A stretch of 63,999 nt of DNA, the filler included, from Kipferlia bialata (Eukaryota): the NCBI GenBank assembly GCA_003568945.1. It is 5 parts of 5 records of this genome, joined end to end, with 100 filler letters (N's around TTAATTAATTAA, not from the genome) between each part and the next. Parts side by side here need not be neighbours in the genome. Positions count along the whole stretch, not along the records: positions 16,125 to 32,140 come from BDIP01000643.1; 4 more parts are not named here. One strand, written 5' to 3'. Shown here piece by piece: positions 15,558 through 32,690 of the stretch. Below the pieces are notes generated by a model, which saw only the letters and a program-made list of their open reading frames with translations, was not told where the DNA came from and ran no database searches. The position numbers were made by a program, and so were the translations under genes. The first letter of the stretch is position 1, and each line of letters opens with the position of its first letter.

Positions 15558-15594
<37 letters not shown>

Positions 15595-16024
15595 CAGGGC
15601 CATCACATCTAACCAGATGCTGGTGACACTCTAGATATCTATATATTCATATTGAGAGAGAGAAAGAGAGGGAGATGGGGAATAGTGACATGTAATTCAG
15701 GGTTAGTACCGTGCCATAACTCCACCTCTTCGTTGTGGAAGTGATGAGTACTTAACTGTAGACAGGGTCTTGCAACAGACACTTGACTAAAGGCAGACAC
15801 AGAAGTATTGAGGCAATGAGGGGGATGTTACCATATGCTTCTCACTGTGACTCACTCCCTTGAATATATATAGTATACGTGGGAGAGTCTTCCCACTGCA
15901 GGTGGGTCACAGAGTGTGACCGTCTTAAGTCACATTCGTCAAGATGTACTATGTACGCTCATCCAGCTAGTGGTACATTGAAATGAATCATATGTGTATC
16001 ACGGACCGAGTTGGTGAAACCTAT

Positions 16025-16289: not shown

Positions 16290-16914
16290 GTCATTGATGG
16301 CACTGCCCCCCCTGATGCAGAGACATCTAGCATACTGGACAGTCACTTGTATTGGGTAATAGAGGGACCAGGTACATATGTATACATATATATATATATA
16401 CTATTCGATATATATATATATAGTGAATGGATATCTATGTGTGTGAGCATACATGTATAGTGGACAGTCACTTGTATTGGGCCTCAGCTTGACCGGGTAC
16501 ATATATATGTATATATACTATTCGATATAGATATATATATATACTATACTACTAACTGTATACACTATATATACATATATGTATTACCTGAGATGAGTCA
16601 GAGGAGGAACATGTACTGTTACTAACTTCGCCATCATAAATATCATAAATATCATAAGTATACTAACTAATAAATGTATACTAACTTATAAATTTACGTA
16701 TACTAACTAGATACCTCTCTCGCTGTGTAACTCTTCCGCTGTCTACTAACCCCACCACGTAACCTCCTGGTCCTTCCCGCATCTCTCTCTCTCTCCCCTC
16801 TCCTCCTTACACCCAGTGCGTATCCTCCTCATCCAGGCCAATGGGGTCACAGGATCAGGTATATATATACGTATATACATATATATTCACATACACATTA
16901 ACTATATATACCTA

Positions 16915-16951
<37 letters not shown>

Positions 16952-17694
16952 ACCCAATGGTCCTGGCCAACGGGGTCACAGGGTCAGGTACTGAATAATT
17001 AGCATATATATATGTACTATATACTGTATATGTATACTATATACCACCATATATATGTGTTTCCTCCTTGTCCTGGTCAATGGATACACAGGGTCAGGTA
17101 TGTGTATGCATACATCTATATATACGTTATATATCAGTATTTATGTATATTATATAAATATATATATATATATACTTATAGTATCATACACATATACATA
17201 TAGGAATTAAATATTGTGTGTATATAACAAATGGAGTCACGGAGTCAGGTAAAGATATATATATATATATACTCTGTAAGTTCTCTATATTTGTCCATGT
17301 GTATGATTACACTTGATGTGTACTATGATTTCCAGTGTCTCTCTGTCTTAGGATTCTGTGGTGGGTAGAGTATAAACTCTGTATATACTGTAAATGTATA
17401 GTATGTATATTATACAGTCTAGGCAAGAACAATCCACTTTGCCTATCTTACAAACTCTCTCTGTGTATGCACTTACTTATACTTTACCCTTCCTCGATAT
17501 ATACATATATATATATATATATGTATGTATGTATATACTCTCACTCTCTAGGCAAGACATTCACTGTACAGCACGTGGTGCGTAGAGTGCTCAGGCACCT
17601 GGAAGAGGAGAGAGACCGCCTTATCAGCTCAGGTAGGACCATTTACTATCTCTCTCTCCCTCTCTCTCTATATATATATACATATACATATATC

Positions 17695-17725
<31 letters not shown>

Positions 17726-17994
17726 TATCAGAGTACTCAGCCACCTGGAAGAGGAGAGAGGCAGACTCATCAGCTCAGGTTTGAGAGTATTGTATTGTGT
17801 GTTCTAGTTATGTATTGTGTACGTGGCTCCTAGTTCTCTTCCAATGCTAGGTGTCACTACCTCTGTATACACATTCGGCCTCTCTGTCTCTCTCTCTCTC
17901 TGTCTCTCTCTCTCTGTCTCTCGGCCTCTTTCTCTCCCTTCCATTTGTCTTTGGATATGTGAGAGATGTGTCTATAAGCCTTTGTGCACATATA

Positions 17995-18032
<38 letters not shown>

Positions 18033-19304
18033 CTTCACATAACTATCGACTCATCCAGGTCAACACGCCTCTGTGTACACATACTGCCTTGAGTTCAGGG
18101 CCACAGTCAAGAGGAAGACCCACGGGGAGTACGGTTATGTATATAGATAGATTTGTATATATGTAGAGGGGGAGAGAGAGAGAGAGAGGAAGAGCCACAG
18201 TCAAGAGGAAGACCCACGGGGAGTACGTACCCATATCAGTATGTATTCATTAGATATAGAATAGTGTATGAACATCCGTATTTACATAGACACAATCTAA
18301 TATAACTACAGGTACACCTGTGGTAAGATGCCGTGCTACAGACTGTCGATATATGTATATTCATTAAATACCATATAGATGATATTGTATATATGAATAT
18401 GTATCATGTCTAATACAGGTACACCTGTGGCAGATGCAGTGCTACGGACTGGATGCAGACACACACTAATGCATATATATATATACATACATATAAATAT
18501 GTATATGTATATATTCATCTATTCCCTAACCTGTAGGTACACCTGTGGCAAGATGCAGTGCTACAGACTGGATGCAGACACCAAGGCAGAGAGGGACAAG
18601 GTCTTGGAGCCAATGCTGTACGTGACAATGATATTAATGCATATACATAGGGGGAGAGAGAGAGAGAGAGATGCAGACACCAAGGCAGAGAGGGACAAGG
18701 TCTTGGAGCCAAGACTGTACGTGTATATTGCTAAATGTAGAGAGAGATTAGTTTCCTGCTCCATTACTCTGTCACCTTCTGATGTATATAATGTATATAC
18801 GTATATACTATAGTATTGTTACTGTTCATGCCTATATATGTCTTACTGACCATAGCACACGCCCCCCTTCCTTTGGCAGCACTGTTAGTGTCACGCCAAG
18901 GGAGATGGGGACAGCACAAGGGGCATATGAGGCATATATGGTATGTATGTATATATGTGAGACTAAGGAAGAGAGAGAGAGAGACAATGGGAGATGGGGA
19001 CAGCACAGGAGGCATATGAGGCCTTTATGGTGAGTTCTTCAATATATATATACATACCTGCTTGGGTTTGTATGAATTGAGGGGGGAGAGTCTGCATTTA
19101 TGGTATGGACCCATGTATACCTATGTGGATATATAGTATCACTCTCTTTCTGACTGATACATATAGGCCCTCACCCGTATCACCAAATGCATCTATATAC
19201 ATGGATTCATATACATATATACACTTATCTTGGTATATATGTATACATTTATATATATACTTATATATAGGCCCTCCCCCGTATCACCCTGGCCACCAAG
19301 TATA

Positions 19305-19346
<42 letters not shown>

Positions 19347-22300
19347 ATAGGCACTTCCTAGGATCACCCTTGCCACCAAGGGCAACCCGACCAGTTCTAG
19401 GAGCCATGCAGCCATATGTGCCACACTCACTGTGGTATGCATGCATAGTATATAGTATACTATATACTGTATGTATGTATATAGTATATATAGTATATAT
19501 AGTATATATAGTATATATAGTATATATTTACTATACTATGCAGCCATATGTGCCACACTCACTGTGGTATGCATGCATAGTATATGTACTCCTCTACGTT
19601 ACCATTAGTCACGCTTAGTCACCATGGCATACATGCATAGTATATAGTTCACTGTATATGCATTGAATATTCACCATGGTATACATGCAAAGTGTATGTA
19701 TAGTATACTAAATGTATTCTATATACTATGTTACCACCGATGTCACGCTCACAATGTCATACATATATGAGTGAGTATATAATTATTACCACGTAAATAT
19801 CTCACCCCAGGGAGAGGGGAAGGCACGGAGAGAGGTGGCGAGTGTCATGCTGGTGGACATGGCAGGTTAGACAAAAGAGGGTATATATGTATATAGAAAT
19901 ACTTANNNNNNNNNNNNNNNNNNNNNNNNNNNNNNNNNNNNNNNNNNNNNNNNNNNNNNNNNNNNNNNNNNNNNNNNNNNNNNNNNNNNNNNNNNNNNNN
20001 NNNNNNNNNNNACTGTATCTATGAGAGAGGTGGCGAGTGTCATGATGGTGGACATGGCAGGTGAGAGAGAGGCATTAATACTATATATATGTATAGTATA
20101 TAGTATGTTAATCTATATTGTCTATATTAATACATCTATGAGGGAGGTGGCGAGTGTCATGATGGTGGACATGGCAGGTGAGAGAGAGGGATTAATACTA
20201 TATTTATATATAGTATATAGTATGTTATACTATATTGTATATATTAATATATCTAGGAGGGAGGTGGCGAGTGTCATGATGGTGGACATGGCAGGTATGT
20301 GATATATGTATGTATATATACATACACTCTATACTATTCTCTACTCTACTATATGGATATGTATATGGATATGGATATGTATATGATATCGGTGGCCAGT
20401 GTCATGATGGTGGACATGGCAGGTATACATAGATATACATATATATATACATAGGTTGATGAGTCTAGTGTATATGTGTGTCTTGTATATATAGTGTATA
20501 TGTATATGACAGAAGTTGTCAATGTGATGATTGTGGAAATGGCAGGTGATGCTACTAGGAGTACATATGCACTATATAGTATACACACATATGGTGCATA
20601 CATATGGGTACATACACAGCCGCACATGGTTGATATGGCAGGTGAGGCTACAAGGAGTATATAAACTCACTATATAGTATGAATGTATGTACCTATGTAC
20701 CTATATATATATGTGTGTGTGTGTGTGTTGTGCTTGTGGACATGGAAGGTGAGACTAGAAAGAGTGTATGGGGTAGATATTCCTATGTTAAGATTCATAA
20801 TATTACATACTGCTTGCTACTCATATGCACTTTTTTCGTATATGAATTGTTTCTGACTCGAGGCCGTGAGTCCTTCAACGCTGACTCATATACTATTGAT
20901 TTGTGTGTGCGGGTATGCTTACCTCAGGCAGTGAGCCCTTTGACTATGACGCCGACCCTAAGCTGAGAGCACAGGTGGGTACTTATGTACATATATACAC
21001 ACATACACACACAAATATTTGGTATGTATACTATACATTTGATACTGATATATTTGATACTGATACTGATATATATACTTATGCAAAGGACAAGGCCATC
21101 AACTCTGACCAGACTGCATATATGCGTATATGATAATACCTAAGATTATATATATATGTTTATACACTAACGTGTGGGCCACTAATTAGATCATATATAT
21201 ATATATATGTATATATACTTACGTATAGGGCAAGGCCATCAACTCCGACCAGACTGCATTCAAGAGTCACATGACAGACCTGCTCAGAGAGAACAAGGCA
21301 GGGAGGAATGCACTCAGGTATCACTAGTATGTATATATATTTAGAGAAAGAGAGAGAGAGAGAGAGACACGAGGCACTGCAGGATGAGAGAGAGAGAGAG
21401 AGACAACAAGGCAGGGAGGAATGCACTCAGGTATCACTAGTATATATAATATGTATTATAGTGTACACTCACTTATGGATAGTATATAAATATATATAGA
21501 GAGAGAGAGAGTGTGTCGCATGACAGACCTGCTCAGAGAGAACAAGGCAGGGAGGACTGCACTCAGGTATCACTAGTATATACAATATATATTATAGTGT
21601 ACACTCACTTATGTATAGTATATATACAGAGAGAGAGAGAGAGAGAGAGAGTCACATGACAGACCTGCTCAGAGACAACAAGGCAGGGAGGACTGCAATG
21701 AGGTGTATAGTATATTATATATATATACATGTACTATATGTATTAGATATGTATATACTCAGACATATATATATATAGAGAGAGAGAGAGTTGCATGACA
21801 GACCGGCTCAGAGACAACAAGGCAGGGAGGACTGCAATGAGGTATATAATACATGTATACAGTGTATTAGTATGTATGTATATATAGTACTGTCACTATC
21901 TATAATGTATGTATATATATATAGATATATATTGGACTGCGTATTAATATGGAACATATTAACACCAGGGGCTCTGAGCTCCTGAAGGTCATCTCCCCCT
22001 ACTTTAGTGGTGACCCTAGACACCCTGAGGTACATATACCAATATAATATATATATATATATATATAAGTGTGTATATATATATACACTCAGTCCTAATC
22101 CTCAGGCCAGGGTGGTGCTGATAGGGTGTGTGTATGGACACCCGGACCAGTACAACAACGCTAAGGTACTGATATATGTGTATACACATATATCAGGTAT
22201 ATACTCTGTATACTCTATATACTATTACGCGTCGGGTGTGTGTATGGATATCAGGACCAGTGCAACAACGCGAAAGTTACTTTTGGATGTAGGGTTTATG

Positions 22301-25300
22301 CTACTGTATATATATTTGTGCTGATATGGTGTGTGTATGGTCACCGGGACCATAACACTCTGGTAAGTGTACTACAGTGTGTAACATACTGGTGATATGA
22401 TGTGATTATTGTATGGACAGTTCAACCAGGCAAGGTGTACATATATGAGTAGGTATCGTAACATACTCCCAGCTTAGAACACCCTTGAGTTCATCAGCCG
22501 TAGGCTTTTGTCTCTCTCCCCCCCCCCCTCTATATCTCTATATCTCTCTCTATATATATGTACATATCTTACCCCCAGAACACCCTTGAGTTCATCAGCC
22601 GCAGCAGGGGCATCAATCCACAGACAGTCTCAAAGTGAGTGGCAATATATGTATAATCTATATATTAGATTATACATATGTATTTGATATATGTTTGTGT
22701 ATATATCATGTTTCATTGGAACTATATGTGTCATACTAGAATAGTGTATCAAACACCTGTCCTAGTCTCATCATCGACTGCCTTCCAAACTATATGCTGC
22801 TCCTATTTACTATTCGATACACATATACTACCTGAGGCGTTTATGTCCTATTTGGTGTCAAAAATAAAAGAACAGTATCACTTATACCGATCTACAGGGC
22901 GTATGCCTCTATAACAATCTTCTCAGAATATATGTATGCATGTATATCATTGACTGACCCCTGGGTATATGCCGCCACTGACCGTATCTCTGCCTCTCTC
23001 TCTATATATATAAGTATATCTCTCTCTATATATTTATATATATTAGTATGTATGTGTTCACGTGTATATTCTTCTGAACCCAGGGCATGTGCCGCCACTC
23101 AGCGTGTCTTTCTCACCATATATACATAGATATCTGCATATATATAGAGAGAGAGTATGTCTAACCCCAGGGCAACAGCCATCACTCAGCGTATCTCTAG
23201 GGATGCACACCGTCCTTACTACGGGAGTCCTACCCTGAACAAGCTGAGAGGTATGCATCGCTTACACGATATCCCCACACTCTACGTATTCAAATTGTAC
23301 ATATATGAATTAGTGTTTGGTGTACATAAACACACACACACACACACACTCTTCACATGAATGTATATATACAGGTGTAGTATAGTATAGTATATATATA
23401 GTAGTATATGTACCACAATACTCATTGTGGTGGGGAAGCCAAGATGGCCCAGAGGACGGCTACTATTATTATATTATATTTATATATATTATACGTGTAG
23501 AGTTGTTTGTATATATAGTATATTGTGTATATAGTGTAGCACGTGTAGTATATACCCTTACTCCCAGCCAATATGGCCCAGAGGACGGACTTCACTACAT
23601 ATATATGTATACATTCATAGTATAGAGGTATATTGTATATAGTATATATAGTATATATAGTATATATATAGTATATATATAGTATATATTGTCTATATTT
23701 AGCAATATACTCACTGTAGCCAAGATGGCCCAGAGGACGGAAAGGGCTACTAGGCGGCTGCAGCAGGCTGAGAGAGAGGGAGAGAGAGAGATGGAGCTGG
23801 AGGAGTTTGACACTGAGACTGACACCATCAGCATATCAGTGGATAGGGAGGCACTGCAGAACATAGAGAGGTACAATGATTACATATATTCAGATGTCAG
23901 TATATATATATGTATGTATGTATGTATGTGTGTATGTATATTTACACTATAACTGGGGGTCTATGTCCTTGATTTGGGAGAGATACAGTCATTGCATGAA
24001 TATTCGTCAAGTGCGGGCTACTGACTTCTCTTGACGTCTTTATACCTCTATTGACTTCTCTTGACTCTCAGGGAGATCACTGAACTGGCCGTACAGGTGC
24101 AGATACTGTCCCAGACAAGAACAGGTGTGTACATATACCGTTGATTATTAGTATGGTATTAATGCATAATTGTGTATATAGCAACAAATGTTCTACTTAG
24201 ACAAGCAGTCGGACTCTGCCGCCAAGGACAGTCTCATATTATATATATTTTGTGTATTTGTTATACTATATATACGTATATAATTATATATATGTATATA
24301 CTGACTCACTCTTAGAGATGCAGTCTGAGTCAGCTGACAAGGATAGTCGCATTGTAGACCTCAAGGCGCAGCTGGAGGAGCAGAGGCAGAGCATTGAAGA
24401 GTACCGGGATAAGGAGGACAGGTATATGTTTCTATTAGTGTATTAACATAGGTACTCCACATATATACGACCTGAGTATTAGTAACTACTCACCCTAGGG
24501 ACCGTCAGGCTCTGGATGCTGCCAACACCCTTGCTCTAGAGGCCAGAGCAGAGGCAGCCAAGTGGAGGGAGAGACTCGACACCACAAGGTAATATACTAT
24601 GCTGTTCATTGTGATATACTAGGTGTATATAGTACAGTAATTATCAAGTGGAGGGAGAGACTCGACACCACAAGGTAGGAGACTCCGCACTGAGGAGGCA
24701 ATACTATTTCGTGGCATATACTGGGTGTATATGGTATAGTATAGTATAGTTATTATAGTGCCAAGTGGAGGGAGAGACTAGATAGCTTGAGGTGAGGATA
24801 TGCAATACAAATGATTATCATGTGCTTTGTATGGAGATAGTAGACTTGTAATACTAGGTGTGTATACAGTGGTCTGTTTGAGTATAGTTGTCTTACCCCT
24901 AGGGACAAGCTAGACAGGGCTACCGACAGGGCTATGGAGGCGGAGGATAGGGCAGGTACGGAAAGAATATGAATATATGTGTATATATGAATCACTGTAT
25001 ATATAGAGAATATAGCATGGCGTATGCTCTGGATAGGGCTGGGGAGGCGGAGGAGAGGGCAGGTTCGGATTGTATGAGGATATGTATATATCTATGTATG
25101 TCCAATATTCTAATCCAGCTGAGTACACCGCCACCATATCCTGTCTCCAGCAGTCACTCAGAGAGGCAGAGAGGGAGAGAGAGAGGGAGAGAGAGACTGC
25201 ACTTAGAGAGGCAGAGAGAGAGAGAGAGACTGCAGTCAGAGAGACAGAGAGGGAGAGAGAGACTGCTCTGAGAGAGGCAGAGAGGGAGAGAGAGACTGCC

Positions 25301-26857
25301 GTACAGCTGAGAGAGGAAATGGAGGCTAGACTGCAGGAGCACAAAGGTAATACCACTCAGTCTTACCGTCTATTCATCTTGCATACTATTATATATATCC
25401 CTTCTATCCCCAGCCCGGATTGAGCACCTCCAGTCCCAGCTCTCTATCTCAGATTCTAATAGNNNNNNNNNNNNNNNNNNNCCTCCAGTCCCAGCTCTCT
25501 ATCTCAGATTCTAATAGTGTAAATAATGTATATATATACTATATGGTGTGTATGGTATATCTCTTTCTAACCCCAGCCCGGATTGAGCACCTCCAGTCCC
25601 AGCAGACCTCGTCTGACACTGCTATGGCAGAAGCAAGGGAGGCTGCACAGGCCAGGGCTCTAGAGTATGCTGAGACTATAGCTGTAGCTGAGACACAGGC
25701 AGACCACGCTAGAGTGAGGTACGCAGAGCTAGAGGCTGTCCTGAGAGGGGAGAGAGAGCAGCTTGCTGAAGTGAGGGCTGCCGCAGAGGCCAGGGCTGAA
25801 GCGGATGCTAGGGCTCTAGCTGAGGCCAAGTGTGCCGCAGAGACCCAGGCAGAGGATGCCAGTGTGAGGTACTCAATTAGCTATATATATATATATATTT
25901 ATACACTTATACTGATGCTGATACTGTTAGGTACGCAGAGCTAGAGGCTGTCCTGACAGAAGAGAGGGAGCAGAGAGAGAGAGAGAGAGACAGCGTCCTG
26001 ACAGGGGAGAGGGAGCTGCTTGCAGAAGTGAGGACTGCTGCAGAGACACAGGCAGAGCAGGCTAGTGAGAGGTACTTATATAGTGTTATACAGTGTTATA
26101 GTGTTATACAGTGTTATACAATTACATTCCTATAGTGATAGATAATTGAGAACATATGTTGTATGTAGATACTCATACTGCCACTGACACTGTTAGGTAC
26201 TCTCAGCTTGAGGCTCTCCTGGCTGAGGCCACGGCAGCTGCTGAGAGACAGGAAGAGCAGGCTAGTGCGAGGTACGCAGAGCTAGAGGCTGTTCTAGCAG
26301 AGAAGAGGGAGCAGCTGCAGAGATCAGAGACGGCGAGAGAGAGAGAGAGGGAGCAGTTGCAGGTGGTACGCTCAGAGAAGAGTCAGCTGGAGTCTCAGTG
26401 CAAGGAGCTGGGAGTTCTAGTGGACAGCCTGAGATCAGAAGCAGAGAGAGAGAGAGAGATCCAGCAGATGGAGGAGGAGAACACCGGTCTCAAGCAACAG
26501 CTAGGTAAGAGTTGTACATTTGTAGTCTCTACCTCTCTGTGAGTAGCTACTGTCTCTAATCATTCTCTCTGTTTCTAACCCCAGCTGAGTCACAGTCCCT
26601 GCTGGCTGAGTTGCAGTCATCCCTCACATTGTCCAAGGAGGTCGCTCTAGGTAGGAAGAGATGTACATATATAGTCTACCCCAGCGTGAGTGGCTACTTA
26701 CGATGATCTCTCTCTAACAGCCGCTGAGTCTTTGGTCAATTGTTGCCACCTCTCTCTGTCAATGTATGCATCTAAGTGTATAACGTGATAGTGTATAAGC
26801 GTATGTGTGTATACATACCATCTGAACTGAGTGTAGGCCTTTGGGCACTGGTTATGA

Positions 26858-26892
<35 letters not shown>

Positions 26893-29648
26893 ACCCCAGC
26901 CGAGTCCAGGTCTAAGGTGTCCCAGTTGCAGGCATCCATCACACTGTCCAAGGAGGCAGCGGACCAGGCTCTTGCTGAGGCAGAGGCTATGGTAGAGAGA
27001 GAGAGGTCTCAGGCACAGGCTATGGTGGAGTCTGCCACCAAGTCTCACACCTCCACTACCGCTCTCTTGGAGGAGAGATACCAGAGAGAGCTAGAGGTTG
27101 CCATCGAGGCTCGTGATGAGAAGATTGCCGTGCAGATGCAGCTAGAGGCCCAGGTGGCAGCACTCGAGGAGGTATGTATACTGGTATATATATATATATA
27201 TATACATACTCTTATACATATTATACCCTTATACATATATACATATACATATATCAGTGGTGGAGGCACAGGCGGTAGCACTGGTGGAGGTACGTGTAAG
27301 TCTCTCTCTCTCTCTCTCTCTCTCTATTTAGAGATATATATTTGTATATCTATCTAATCATAGGCCAATGCCACCCTGCGCACCAGTCTCTCTGAGGTCC
27401 GGGAGGAGATGGAGAGAGAGAGGGATGAGAGAGAGACAGAGAGAGCGGAGAGAGAGAGAGAGGGGTCTGTCCTGCACCGGGTGCTGCAGCTGCAGGAAGA
27501 GACTGCCAGTGAGATGAGCACTCTCCAGACACACCTTTCAGACGCCAATGAGGAGAGAGACAATGCTCTAGCCTCAGCCTTTGTGCTGCAGGACCGTCTG
27601 GACAGTGCTGCCGCAGATGTTGTCAGGGTGAGAGATACCTTGGAGAGTGAGGCTGCAGAGAGAGAGAGGGAGTGGATATTGGAGAGAGATGAGCTTGAGC
27701 TCAGGCTGGTGCAACAGACCTCTCTAGTGTCTACCCTTCAGACTGAGAGGGAGAAGGAGGTGGCTATATCTGCTGAGAGAGTGCGTGAGGCACAGCGGTT
27801 AGAGACAGAGAGAGAGGCTCTGAGTGAGACTGTGGTAGCTGAGCTAGAGAAGGAGAGAGAGAAGACACAGGTCCTCAAGACTAAGCTGAGTGAGAGAGAC
27901 TCCCAGCTAGAGAGAGTCAGAGAGAGACTTGGTGAGAGGGCGACCGAAGCCGAGGAATCCAATAGCTTGGTAGAGCTCCTGCAGCGTGAGGTGGCCGCGC
28001 TGACAAGGGAGAGAGACAAGCTGAGATACGGTGCTGCAGTGACAGATGCTGCCGAGGTGGAGAGGGAGAGAGAGACAGTGACTGCTGAGGCAGCCCCTGC
28101 CACGCCTGACCCTTGGTGTGGGGTTGGTGTGACTCCAGAAGTACGAGGGAGGGACACTACTCTCAGCACGTCGCTAGGGTCTGCTTCTCCACTGGTACCC
28201 TCTCTGGAGGACCCTCAAGCCGGTGTGACAGGAGCAGAGGAGGTACTTGCCACTGAGAGTGACACAGGTGTAGATGGTGACTGCAGCCAGGAGGGTGAGG
28301 GAGAGGATGGCATTGAGAGTGCCGAGGTAGGCACTGTTCTGGAGCCACTGCACATTGAGAGAGAGAGAGAGGGAGAGGGTGAGGGTGAGGGTGACCAGAC
28401 TGACACTGATACCACCAGTGCCTCTACTGCAGAGACAGAGGACGCAGTTGAAAGTGAGAGAGCCTCTATGGTCACGGATGCAAGTGGGGGAGAGAGAGAG
28501 TGGGTTGACTGGGAGCCTCTGGACAGTCAGTTCTGGGACACCCCACGCAACCCCAAGCAGAACACATACCAGGGCGAGTACAACTTGTATGGACAGAGGA
28601 GTGGCAAGGGTAACATGGTGTACAAGAACGGGGACCGCTACTCTGGGAGCTGGCGGTTCAACAAGAGGTGTGATAAGTGCATTTCTACTTTACTCATCCA
28701 TCATCCATACGTACCTGTTGTATGTTTGAGATACTATTATCGCGTCTGGCGGAACAATACGAGGTATATGGAGTGAGTCTATGTATATATGTACTATCTA
28801 CAGTATCTCTCACTGTAGGCACGGGAAGGGCAGGATGGTGTATGCGTCCGGGGAGACCTACTCTGGTGACTGGAAGGGAAGCCGTCGGATAGGACATGGC
28901 ATCAATATATACCCTAAGGGTGCCATGTATGATGGCGACTTCTTTGGGGATGCCCCGGACGGCCATGGCACGATCCACTACCCCGACGGCTCCACATACA
29001 AGGGAGAGTGGACGAGAGGGGTTAGGAGTGGGCATGGTGTGTGGGCAGATTCACAGGGTAATGAGTACGACGGCGAATGGGTGGGTGGGATGAAGCATGG
29101 GCGTGGTCAGTACACCGATGCCAAGGGTGATATATATGTGGGGGATTGGGTGAAGGACCAGATGCATCGTAATCAGACATGTGCCAGGAAGAGACGGGGG
29201 GTCTGGGGGGAGGAGATAGAGGTGGTGGAGGAGCAGTCATGGGAGAATGGTGTCCTGAGGTTCTCTCGTACAGTCGGGAACAAGATACTCCAGCGTACTG
29301 GTAGTGAGTCTGAGAGTGGCGGGGAACCTCCTGGGCACAGAGGGAAGCCCAGGTACGGATACACATATATTTATATATACATACAGTGAATATATGTTTA
29401 TTCATTGTGCCTTTCATTCCTATAGACATCACGCTGCCTCTTGACTTAACCGAAGGTTACTAGACGGCTTAGTTGCTGCAGGGGAGGAGAGGCATGAGAG
29501 AGACCATGCTGAGACAGAGAGGGTGAGGGAGAGAGAGAGGAGGACGCAACTGCCGAAGGGTCCAAGACCCAAGGCTGTAGAGAAGGGAGTGATGTCCTAT
29601 ACTGAGAAGGTCCGAGGAGGTGGTGCTCGGAAGAGGCCGCAGAAGTAG
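16290..29648 (+). CDS. Divergent kinesin: N-terminal motor, long coiled coil, acidic linker, C-terminal MORN repeats (5'-truncated at scaffold edge)
   Basis: Spliced motor motifs occur in order: P-loop IQANGVTGS|GKTFT (16817-16858, 17552-), switch I NPTSSRSHA (19351-19433), switch II LVDMA|GSE (19811-19865, 20928-), then GKAINSD and NTLEFISRSRGI. E/R/A/Q-rich coiled-coil exons span 23.7-28.0 kb. MORN repeats (YQGEY...GKGNMVYKNGDRYSGSW, GETYSGDW, GSTYKGEW...) lie at about 28560-29170. Probable last exon 29456-29648 ends ...RKRPQK*. Confidence 0.85.
19811..20770 (+). repeat. Stack of 7 or more downstream echoes of the kinesin switch-II exon end, each ending in its GT donor
   Basis: Live exon 19811-19865 ends ...gtggacatggcag|gt. 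Copies end at about 20060, 20177, 20294, 20422, 20545, 20641 and 20768, separated by (TA)-rich spacers. Confidence 0.9.
25152..25300 (+). repeat. Coding tandem repeat (~33 nt; EAERERETA(L/V)R units) in the kinesin coiled coil
   Basis: LREAERERERERETALREAERERETAVRETERERETALREAERERETAV seen in ORF 25070-25423. Confidence 0.8.
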
Positions 29649-31011
29649 CCCTGAGAGAGAAGAGAGAGAAGAGAGAGAGAGAGACGTGGGCATAGGGAGA
29701 GGTAGTTGGAGGCCAGTCCCCTCTTTGTAATATATCATCAGCGATAATGGCTATGAACTTCGTACTTTGAAGGGCTTAACCTTATGGAGTCGTCATCCTG
29801 TATGGTTTGACTATGCATATACGGTGTACAAAATTCCCTTCTCGATGGTATTTGTCATGAATGCTGATACTAAGCCCTCTAATTGAAGTGCACACTCCCC
29901 CTGTAGAGTATTTCCTACTTTGAGCCTCCACCATTAATTGATATGCTTGTAGTGCAAGCCTTGTACAACTCTTAGACTGAGAGTCTATGGTAGTCTAGTG
30001 GATCATATTGGGACAAGAGAGAAATCTGGAGGGTGGCCACCGGCCAGATGAGAAGCCTACTTATAGACCAACCAGTCTAAGACCCTGAGGATTAATAGTA
30101 CTATTTCAAAACCATTACTGTTGGTGAATCACTGACAGTCAGTGACAATGGTTGGTTGTATCAATGTAGTATGTTGTTACTAGACCTAGTATTTCCGACC
30201 CGCTCGAAACATGCTATTCAACCAGAAAATCAAGTCTTGAACGATTCAAGTGTCCTTGCCACGCATATAACAATAAATAGTAAATAAAGAATAATAAAAA
30301 AAGAAAAAAAAATATTTTATAATGAATACACATGGGTCACATATGTATTATACATTATGTATGATTCTCAGAACGTGCCTACATTCTATTGGTAAGTTGT
30401 CACGACTTAGTTGTTGCAGTTCGTGGACCCAAAGTTTTGCATCGCATACGACGTTGACTCAACGTCGTTGAGTAGTTATGTGCGTTTCTGATTTCTACAT
30501 GAATTGGTGGAGACAGCACTTGTAAAACAACCTACAGACAGTGTCCATCGGTGTCGATGATGGTGGGAGTTGCCTACTTTATAGGTCCCACTGTGGGAAC
30601 GTCAGGCCCTGACGAGGGGTAAAATTATTTTTATTTATTCCGAGTCGGAATGGATAAGCGTTCCAGAATTACCGACTCTCTTTGTATACAACATATTGAG
30701 TATATGTATCCCGGAGTGTCCTTCCTCTATGAATGAAAGTGGGTTGCAGGGTCTGTTTGTCTGACAGACTAGAGTGTATTCAATATATACAGTATGAGTA
30801 GATATTCAGTAGTATTCTTGATTCCGTCGGTGACCAGAGTTTGGCTGAGATTGAAGTGTCACTTGGTGTTATTGGTGACGGGTAGGTATCACATCTGTTT
30901 TGGATACAGACTGTCCAGCTTCCGTATCGTAACAGCGCCTGAGAATATCAAGTTGAGGTATACAACGTGTCATCTATTCTTCCATCTCTCTCTCTTCCTC
31001 TACCCTATGTC

Positions 31012-32240: not shown

Positions 32241-32280
<40 letters not shown>

Positions 32281-32284
<4 letters not shown>

Positions 32285-32396
32285 TACACCCTTATGTCAG
32301 CTGCTGCCCATGACATTGAGCACTGTATCTCTCTCTCCCCCCCTCTACACCCTTATATCAGCTGCTCCCCATGACATTGAGCACTCTCTCTCTCTC

Positions 32397-32438
<42 letters not shown>

Positions 32439-32690
32439 TGCACCCTTATATCAGCTGCTGCCCATGACATTGAGCACTGTATCTCTCTCTCCCCCCCTCT
32501 ACCCCCTTATATCAGCTCCTGCCCATGACATTGAACCCTCTCTCCCTCTCCCTCTCTCCGTCTCTCTCTCTCTCTCTCTCTCTCCCTCTGCACCCTTATT
32601 TCAGCTGCTGCCCATGACATTGAGCACACACTCTCTCTCTCCCTCCCTCTACACCCTTATTTCAGCTGCTGCCCATGACATTGAGCACTG
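32281..32690 (+). repeat. Stack of upstream acceptor echoes before the PDE HD exon
   Basis: cacccttat(a/t/g)tcag|ctgctgcccatgacattga occurs six times; five stop after about 20-27 nt in (TC)n, and only the last (32666) continues as the exon. Confidence 0.9.

Follow-up and report, generated by a model that had tools for sequence, protein, structure and literature searches.

Loosely age-ordered stacks of exon-end copies in Kipferlia bialata introns and their possible origin in displaced allele ends

Introns of the free-living protist Kipferlia bialata carry stacks of short, partial copies of the neighbouring exon ends (echoes); these stacks are real, undescribed as far as searched, and their age order is loose. 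Silent intronic copies with coding-type divergence call for explanation, and from the sequence comparisons below the balance tips slightly towards echoes being displaced ends of older alleles, left behind when repair copied a diverged homologue and the break was closed by end joining. All counts refer to one window, a 64-kb stretch of K. bialata DNA (63,999 nucleotides) in which five contigs are joined by linkers.

Echoes at exon borders across the window

The exon set comprises 133 exons in 14 gene models, checked by open frame and curated by hand because automatic gene prediction mistook echoes for exons. Exon queries match the K. bialata proteins KIPB_003384 and KIPB_003380 at 100% identity. 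A comparison with the annotation, covering 35 of the 133 curated exons (two annotated proteins), found 27/27 in annotated KIPB_003380 and 8/8 in the second gene's annotated protein; all 35 exon peptides match, echoes are absent from the annotated proteins, and exon 18880 begins 24 bases earlier in the annotation than in the curated set.

A local-alignment scan of exons against introns, at a threshold passed by 0.3% of 2660 exon/foreign-intron control pairs, returned 174 matches on 80 of the 133 exons, or 173 echoes after removal of one beside a gap, in 109 stacks. Detection succeeded in 109/266 adjacent pairs versus 0/212 same-gene non-adjacent introns and 2/266 inverted pairs. Among the 91 upstream matches, 87 reach the exon 5' end, 75 stand after AG and none represents the 3' end, while 76 of the 83 downstream matches reach the exon 3' end and 66 stand before GT or GC. 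The two kinds interleave in none of the 23 introns that hold both, and a single match of the 174, which lacks AG, reaches both exon ends.

Median echo length is 31 bases and median period 110 (10-90% range, 81-146), each unit comprising about 31 bases of exon end, a splice site and about 75 bases of intron-like spacer. Such units make up 15,894 of the 31,124 intron bases in 114 gap-free introns (51%); with half of the examined intron DNA in echo units, they constitute a route of intron growth, whatever its cause. The intron left between the outermost echoes has a median of 110 bases, like echo-free introns (120). At 0.51 identity, alignments of random flank pairs offer no sign that spacers at different loci belong to a common repeat family. 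Extrapolation from the 64 kb, at 1.3 echoes per exon, gives on the order of 100,000 echoes for the genome. The contig at 56709-63999 (contig 5) is nearly echo-free, with 4 echoes and 19 exons, and its introns look less TA-rich; echo/exon counts in the other four contigs are 54/37, 43/31, 61/36 and 11/10.

Echoes are silent today, as seen in frameshifting gaps (10 of 11, the remaining one being a multiple of three) and stop codons (4 in 1699 codons). Individual cases include an echo at 9726-9766, in which 6/6 differences fall at third positions, and the following:

3504 to 3554, + strand: echo of exon 3355-3429, a strong case with 12 mismatches in 51 bases, 8 at third positions
5932 to 5981, + strand: echo of exon 5651-5721, a strong case with 8 mismatches in 50 bases, all at third positions
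50322 to 50387, + strand: copy of a coding end that takes in the stop codon; no splice site

Echoes of last coding bases also occur in 3' flanks at 15590-15634 and 44440-44421 (- strand); two of these three echoes include the stop codon, and a splice site is part of none. Stop-codon echoes lacking a splice site suggest that echoes form where conservation ends.

The stack in the kinesin-like gene

The stack studied most closely lies in gene KIPB_003380, which has 36 echoes and 27 curated exons. Its kinesin assignment rests on a weak match to KIF13B (residues 151-314, E=1.6e-4); Pfam found MORN repeats on KIPB_003380 and no kinesin domain. PDB chain 9y6s_8a, titled Kinesin-MORN, matches the MORN part. 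Protein searches with the window proteins returned high-identity matches to the species' own record only. A preliminary description had reported seven echo peptides downstream of the live exon; all seven are present, as partial copies of the 3' end of 19811-19865, each followed by GT, and they translate as it stated. The features are:

16290 to 29650, + strand: KIPB_003380 (partial), host gene, a divergent kinesin-like motor with coiled coil and MORN repeats
19351 to 19434, + strand: previous live exon, with upstream and downstream echoes of its own
19811 to 19865, + strand: live 55-base exon 8 (counted within the contig) of the kinesin-like gene, encoding REVASVMLVDMA, with G-S-E completed across the intron
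19866 to 20927, + strand: GT..AG intron holding the stack, 1062 bases including the gap
19906 to 20011, no strand: assembly gap of 106 N between the live exon flank and echo 1
20023 to 20062, + strand: echo 1 and GT; 38 bases (20023-20060), 1 mismatch
20061 to 20139, + strand: spacer 1
20140 to 20179, + strand: echo 2 and GT; 38 bases (20140-20177), 2 mismatches
20178 to 20255, + strand: spacer 2
20256 to 20296, + strand: echo 3 and GT; 39 bases (20256-20294), 2 mismatches
20391 to 20424, + strand: echo 4 and GT; 32 bases (20391-20422), 2 mismatches
20508 to 20547, + strand: echo 5 and GT, the most diverged; 38 bases (20508-20545), 10 mismatches, 6 at third positions
20627 to 20643, + strand: echo 6 and GT; 15 bases (20627-20641), 2 mismatches, both at synonymous third positions
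20725 to 20750, + strand: echo 7 and GT; 24 bases (20725-20748), 4 mismatches
20863 to 20885, + strand: sequence under threshold, noticed by eye, that follows AG and is probably a diverged upstream echo of the 5' start of the next exon
20928 to 20974, + strand: next live exon

We take the exon peptide, together with G-S-E across the intron, to be a switch II-like motif. Echo 5 carries an Asp to Glu change in the motor motif; at one position the live exon and echo 7 have Leu and echoes 1-4 have Met. Echo 6 is under the automatic threshold, was read from the sequence and is left out of the window-wide counts. The re-duplication of echo-plus-spacer units that had been proposed is borne out for units 1 and 2, which repeat at a 117-base period with spacers identical in 71/79 columns. 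Over 38 bases echo 2 matches echo 3 exactly, whereas spacers 1 and 2 differ at 8/79. The 106-N gap between the exon and echo 1 may hide another unit. At position 20112 a unitig has A and the assembly T, either a miscall or a sign of a hidden extra unit.

A spliced contig of RNA type joins 19810-19862, 20925-20972 and 21227-21318 consecutively, skipping the stack, and its loose end matches the previous exon. All four of its joints in 4 kb fit live exons alone. Its RNA nature is a guess backed by these spliced joints, as neither of the two runs that contain the stretch, both from one sample, is recorded as RNA. The status of 19811-19865 as a live exon is supported by this contig and by the presence of the exon peptide in the public protein KIPB_003380. 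DNA unitigs at 20043-20169, 20160-20286, 20395-20693 and 20740-21186 have depths of 394-444 versus 377-469 in neighbours, and those at 20395-20693 and 22095-22528 cross spacer-echo junctions without differences. As far as testable, the stack is not an assembly chimera; the read-level check covered 19600-23600, the longest pieces are shorter than the whole stack, and the DNA run may be the assembly's own source.

Divergence, flanks and age order

Mismatches between echoes and exons are concentrated at third codon positions (87, 84 and 278 at positions 1, 2 and 3, in 1833, 1849 and 1821 columns), and pN/pS is 0.23-0.30, likewise for the nearest echoes alone. At 0-fold sites 152/3436 columns mismatch versus 173/870 at 4-fold sites, the latter being higher for every base, for a ratio of 0.222 (exon bootstrap 0.168-0.29, maximum 0.38) that is 0.19 and 0.25 on the two sides. 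Corrected divergence is 0.23 at 4-fold and 0.046 at 0-fold sites. A simulated neutral echo, with amino-acid change disallowed in the exon, has a ratio of 0.57 (minimum 0.467 in 120 runs). The observed ratio is below 0.5 in 11 of the 13 echo-bearing genes (the other two have 7 and 3 four-fold columns), and KIPB_003380, at 0.43, is the weakest large case. Amino-acid differences are more conservative than random (p=0.003), and 32/173 echoes match the exon without any difference. Exon-echo gene conversion was rejected by reasoning, since within one lineage it could not bring the ratio below 0.5.

Changes confined to the inner echo are synonymous in 30 of 58 cases versus about 29% expected (p=0.0002), and could derive from order-scrambling multi-unit duplication. 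Inner singletons comprise 12 non-synonymous and 8 synonymous changes (7 synonymous and 11 not in a stricter count). Shared variants break a single ladder at 9 sites and follow it at 11; the former, found in non-neighbouring or inner copies, are synonymous in 7/9 cases, as if drawn from an allele pool. Comparing echoes with each other where their flanks are similar gives 11 pairs, in which third positions account for 11 of 18 differences. Mismatch counts did not follow the geometric law of a single coalescent: they are overdispersed, though less than that law requires, with a best-fitting k of 3-5 and not 1. Where upstream and downstream echoes of the same exon overlap, they have a non-live base in common at 3/17 variable columns, and this rarity suggests that the two kinds are mostly separate events. 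A single insertion that cuts an exon in two, giving one upstream and one downstream echo, was rejected as a general account because of the gaps that remain in long exons and the scarcity of shared bases; the overlaps fit such an insertion in 17/29 exons versus 11.3 expected (p=0.012).

Across the border, even for exon parts that are 98% identical, identity drops to 0.62-0.70 at intron positions 3-6 and 0.48-0.57 at positions 7-12. Echo flanks are still homologous to live ones (0.46 and 0.49 versus a same-gene background of 0.32 and 0.35). In 13/140 echoes they are 80% or more like the live flank; these units, roughly a tenth, have the look of simple duplications on the same chromosome and need no allele. 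Splice-site scores, for echoes with intact AG/GT only, are 5.5 versus 5.9 and 8.6 versus 8.9 bits for echo and live sites; other dinucleotides score 3.7 and -2.7 bits. Taken together, the synonymous-biased differences, the unlike flanks and the live-grade splice sites indicate that echo and live end diverged mostly while both worked.

Inner ends of echoes abut unrelated spacer, so that each unit has one homologous and one non-homologous junction. Runs of (CT)n lie within 20 bases after 37/87 upstream echoes (reverse case, 1), and (GA)n runs within 20 bases before 14/79 downstream echoes (reverse case, 0); (GA)n occurs in 3/114 intron parts that are inner or free of echoes. Such symmetry under reverse complementation speaks for DNA-end processing and not for splicing. 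Stacks of five or more upstream echoes at 32241-32665 and 43540-44064 are separated almost wholly by (CT)n runs. Inside many exons (25119-28667 and others) there are (GA)n runs that code for Glu-Arg repeats; these may be such filler in a form that the reading frame tolerates.

The preliminary description had claimed that divergence grows with distance from the exon. This holds as a loose trend over stacks; it fails in the stack after exon 19811-19865, where the most diverged copy, echo 5, lies inside. Correlation of rank with divergence passes weakly: over shared columns, divergence is greater in the farthest echo than in the nearest one in 23 of 39 stacks, smaller in 7 and equal in 9 (sign test p=0.003), and in the 14 stacks with 3 or more echoes mean tau is 0.29 (permutation p=0.02), with 4/14 monotone. 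Sites of 0-fold degeneracy, which are the better clock of time spent silent, give 41 versus 17 mismatches in 680 columns for farthest and nearest echoes (16:3 stacks, 20 ties, p=0.002), and a fixed 18-base window gives 15:7 (10 ties, p=0.07). Intact AG/GT is kept in 86/100, 32/35 and 23/24 echoes by rank, so loss does not rise with distance. The rank trend is flattened because highly diverged echoes escape detection. Such a trend would be expected of any tandem array growing beside an exon, and order alone is thus unsurprising. The further picture of exact copies ageing in place must be abandoned because of the synonymous bias.

Origin of the echoes and comparison with known systems

If echoes are displaced allele ends, a break that falls no more than about 50 bases from the end of an exon would invade a diverged allele, the exons alone being alike enough, and synthesis would continue into the donor allele's intron. 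The new strand, unable to re-anneal beyond the exon edge, would be linked, with simple-repeat filler, to the opposite side of the break through joining of the polymerase-theta type, whereupon the copied end would turn live and the old one be displaced into the intron. Repeated events, with unequal exchange between units, would build stacks; neutral decay of silent echoes would produce the loose age order; and selection against products in which the two splice sites are both misplaced or both in place would leave strict polarity. What is observed is that 5' ends stack upstream, 3' ends stack downstream and the transcript skips both. The enzymes of K. bialata fit one-sided invasion with end joining: in the available portions of the sources, fornicates are without Ku-type joining and Rad51A and have kept Dmc1 (PMC8516963), the K. 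bialata entries include Spo11, Dmc1 and PolQ (PMC8516963 Supplementary Data 2; by listing, not sequence), and Dmc1 stabilises mismatched joints (PMC6719624).

The allele model needs past outcrossing at a synonymous divergence of about 0.2. No donor allele was seen: metagenome scans for relatives found none, and one differing site in 4 kb of the DNA run indicates that the strain is not visibly heterozygous. The corrected divergences (0.23/0.046) suggest that echoes are younger than typical allele divergence, and they should therefore differ between isolates. The flat loss of AG/GT across ranks counts against the allele model, and the narrow period (median 110) is unaccounted for by any tested mechanism. 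The identity of echoes 2 and 3 despite a spacer difference of about 10%, together with the third-position lean, leaves room for present constraint or for faster mutation of TA-rich DNA. The wider reading, in which the genome holds some 100,000 fossil allele fragments, each exon border archives ends that repair from highly diverged partners displaced, and one genome thus records repeated outcrossing, a synonymous diversity of about 0.2 and recombination as the builder of half its intron DNA, is tentative and falls somewhat short of an even chance.

The simplest competing account, implied by the preliminary description, is that ordinary short tandem duplications on the same chromosome straddle the border, are filtered by selection and decay neutrally. 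It explains polarity and loose age order with no further assumptions, has a precedent in human F7 intron 7 (PMC1557585, as far as the portion at hand describes it), and accommodates the exon-identical echoes and the near-identical flanks; units 1 and 2 of the stack in KIPB_003380 are such a duplication. However, under it the 0-fold/4-fold ratio should be at least about 0.5, above even the bootstrap maximum, the flanks should be as alike as the exon part, and splice scores should drop with flank divergence, where no drop was observed. It covers a minority of units, is refuted as sole explanation provided that the synonymous bias holds across the genome, and is improbable as the general one. A single lineage could reach the observed divergence if repair copying were very error-prone (or exons mutated much faster than echoes), with selection for silent changes and a usable splice site, echoes being frozen snapshots. 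Filler-like strand-polar repeats at junctions agree with this, live-side changes are synonymous in 13/16 cases, and sex is unneeded in a strain that looks homozygous over 4 kb. Yet this account requires templated error rates near 0.2 per base, to our knowledge beyond any polymerase; it also predicts a ladder, against which stand 9 non-ladder variants, mostly synonymous, beside 11 ladder ones, and the flanks are homologous above background. We regard it as unlikely.

Selection acting on echoes at present, as spare exon ends used through pop-out recombination or rare splicing, has in its favour the synonymous bias seen when echoes with similar flanks are compared with each other, splice scores on a par with those of live sites and retention of AG/GT at all ranks. 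It is nonetheless rather unlikely in view of the frameshifts and stop codons, the mostly non-synonymous inner singletons, the altered motor motif of echo 5 and the skipping of the stack by the sole RNA-type contig; a half exon carries one splice site only, and second-order selection via pop-out would, by rough reasoning, be too weak. Synonymous bias, strong splice sites and unlike flanks would all follow in one step if whole-exon duplicates had long been mutually exclusive under selection and then lost one half. From the divergences of 0.23 versus 0.046, intact copies should then outnumber echoes, but one match in 174 spans both ends, and stop-codon echoes have no splice site; this history is quite improbable. 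Mixed haplotypes joined at microsatellites by the assembler are a very improbable source: the assembly is from short reads, gaps lie beside some stacks and junctions often fall at simple repeats, but unitigs that run through spacer-echo junctions have a depth like that of the DNA around them.

In architecture the echoes resemble the F7 minisatellite and in the proposed mechanism one-sided invasion, with full membership established in neither. The 37-bp minisatellite with 5' pseudo-splice sites in human F7 intron 7 likewise has a unit that spans the exon-intron border and silent donor copies that follow the real one, the first being used; as described in the part of PMC1557585 consulted, it is one locus of near-identical short units on the donor side only, whereas the echoes form 109 stacks in 64 kb, on both sides, with units of about 110 bases, unlike spacers and synonymous-biased divergence. 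Shared with F7 are a unit of exon end plus splice site, direct orientation, a place in the adjacent intron and skipped pseudo-sites; an intron part at 48-70% identity versus 98% in the exon part, and decay that is not codon-blind, set the echoes apart. One-sided invasion, or SDSA, completed through end joining with polymerase-theta filler, couples homology-primed copying on one side to a junction without homology, and with inserted bases, on the opposite side. We infer this geometry for each unit. The events in the available part of PMC9299229 are engineered or rare and their filler is templated from nearby DNA, whereas echoes would need action at most exon borders with a diverged-allele donor, and their putative filler consists of (CT)n/(GA)n runs.

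Intron gain by exon tandem duplication with a proto-splice site, as set out in the portion of PMC2891723 available, also leaves a local exon copy in intronic sequence; that process creates a new intron position, whereas echoes keep position and protein and lengthen an existing intron from its ends. No new GT..AG intron inside a duplicated exon was found, the echoes all lying within existing introns. Mutually exclusive duplicated exons, as far as the sources at hand describe them, are tandem exon-like copies that diverge at synonymous sites, as echoes do, but they are whole, with both splice sites, where echoes are halves with one; acceptor, donor and frame do not occur together in the echoes, given the single both-ends match lacking AG and the 10/11 frameshifting gaps. 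In CRISPR arrays new units tend to enter at one end. The likeness to a spacer array that had been drawn is an analogy only, since the leader, constant repeat, foreign spacers and integrase of CRISPR arrays are absent here and the order is loose in place of strictly polarised (4/14 stacks monotone).

The echo pattern is undescribed in the literature searched, which included few subscription papers; the supplements of the genome paper may bear on novelty. The genome paper gives 124,912 introns for K. bialata (PMC5874029), and duplication as a route of intron growth is unmentioned in the available portions of PMC5874029 and PMC6679479. If the allele model is true, one genome archives outcrossing in a group where sex was never observed, and the echo stacks are possibly a fossil record of sex in a lineage with no observed sex. 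The stacks also amount to thousands of natural tests of splice-site choice, in which equally strong sites are skipped and the first donor and last acceptor win; the spliceosome is reduced, with 87/174 proteins in the part of PMC6679479 available.

Repetition also occurs within coding sequence of the window. At 25577-26504, adjoining coiled-coil exons repeat one another (YAELEAVL-type units), as retained in-frame duplications of whole segments. KIPB_003384, at 45718-46788 (- strand), is an RNA-ligase-domain protein (PF09414) whose next relatives are environmental proteins only 34-42% identical. At 44088-44147, an apparent 30-base in-frame tandem repeat in a terminal exon, real or an assembly error, doubles a cysteine-rich motif.
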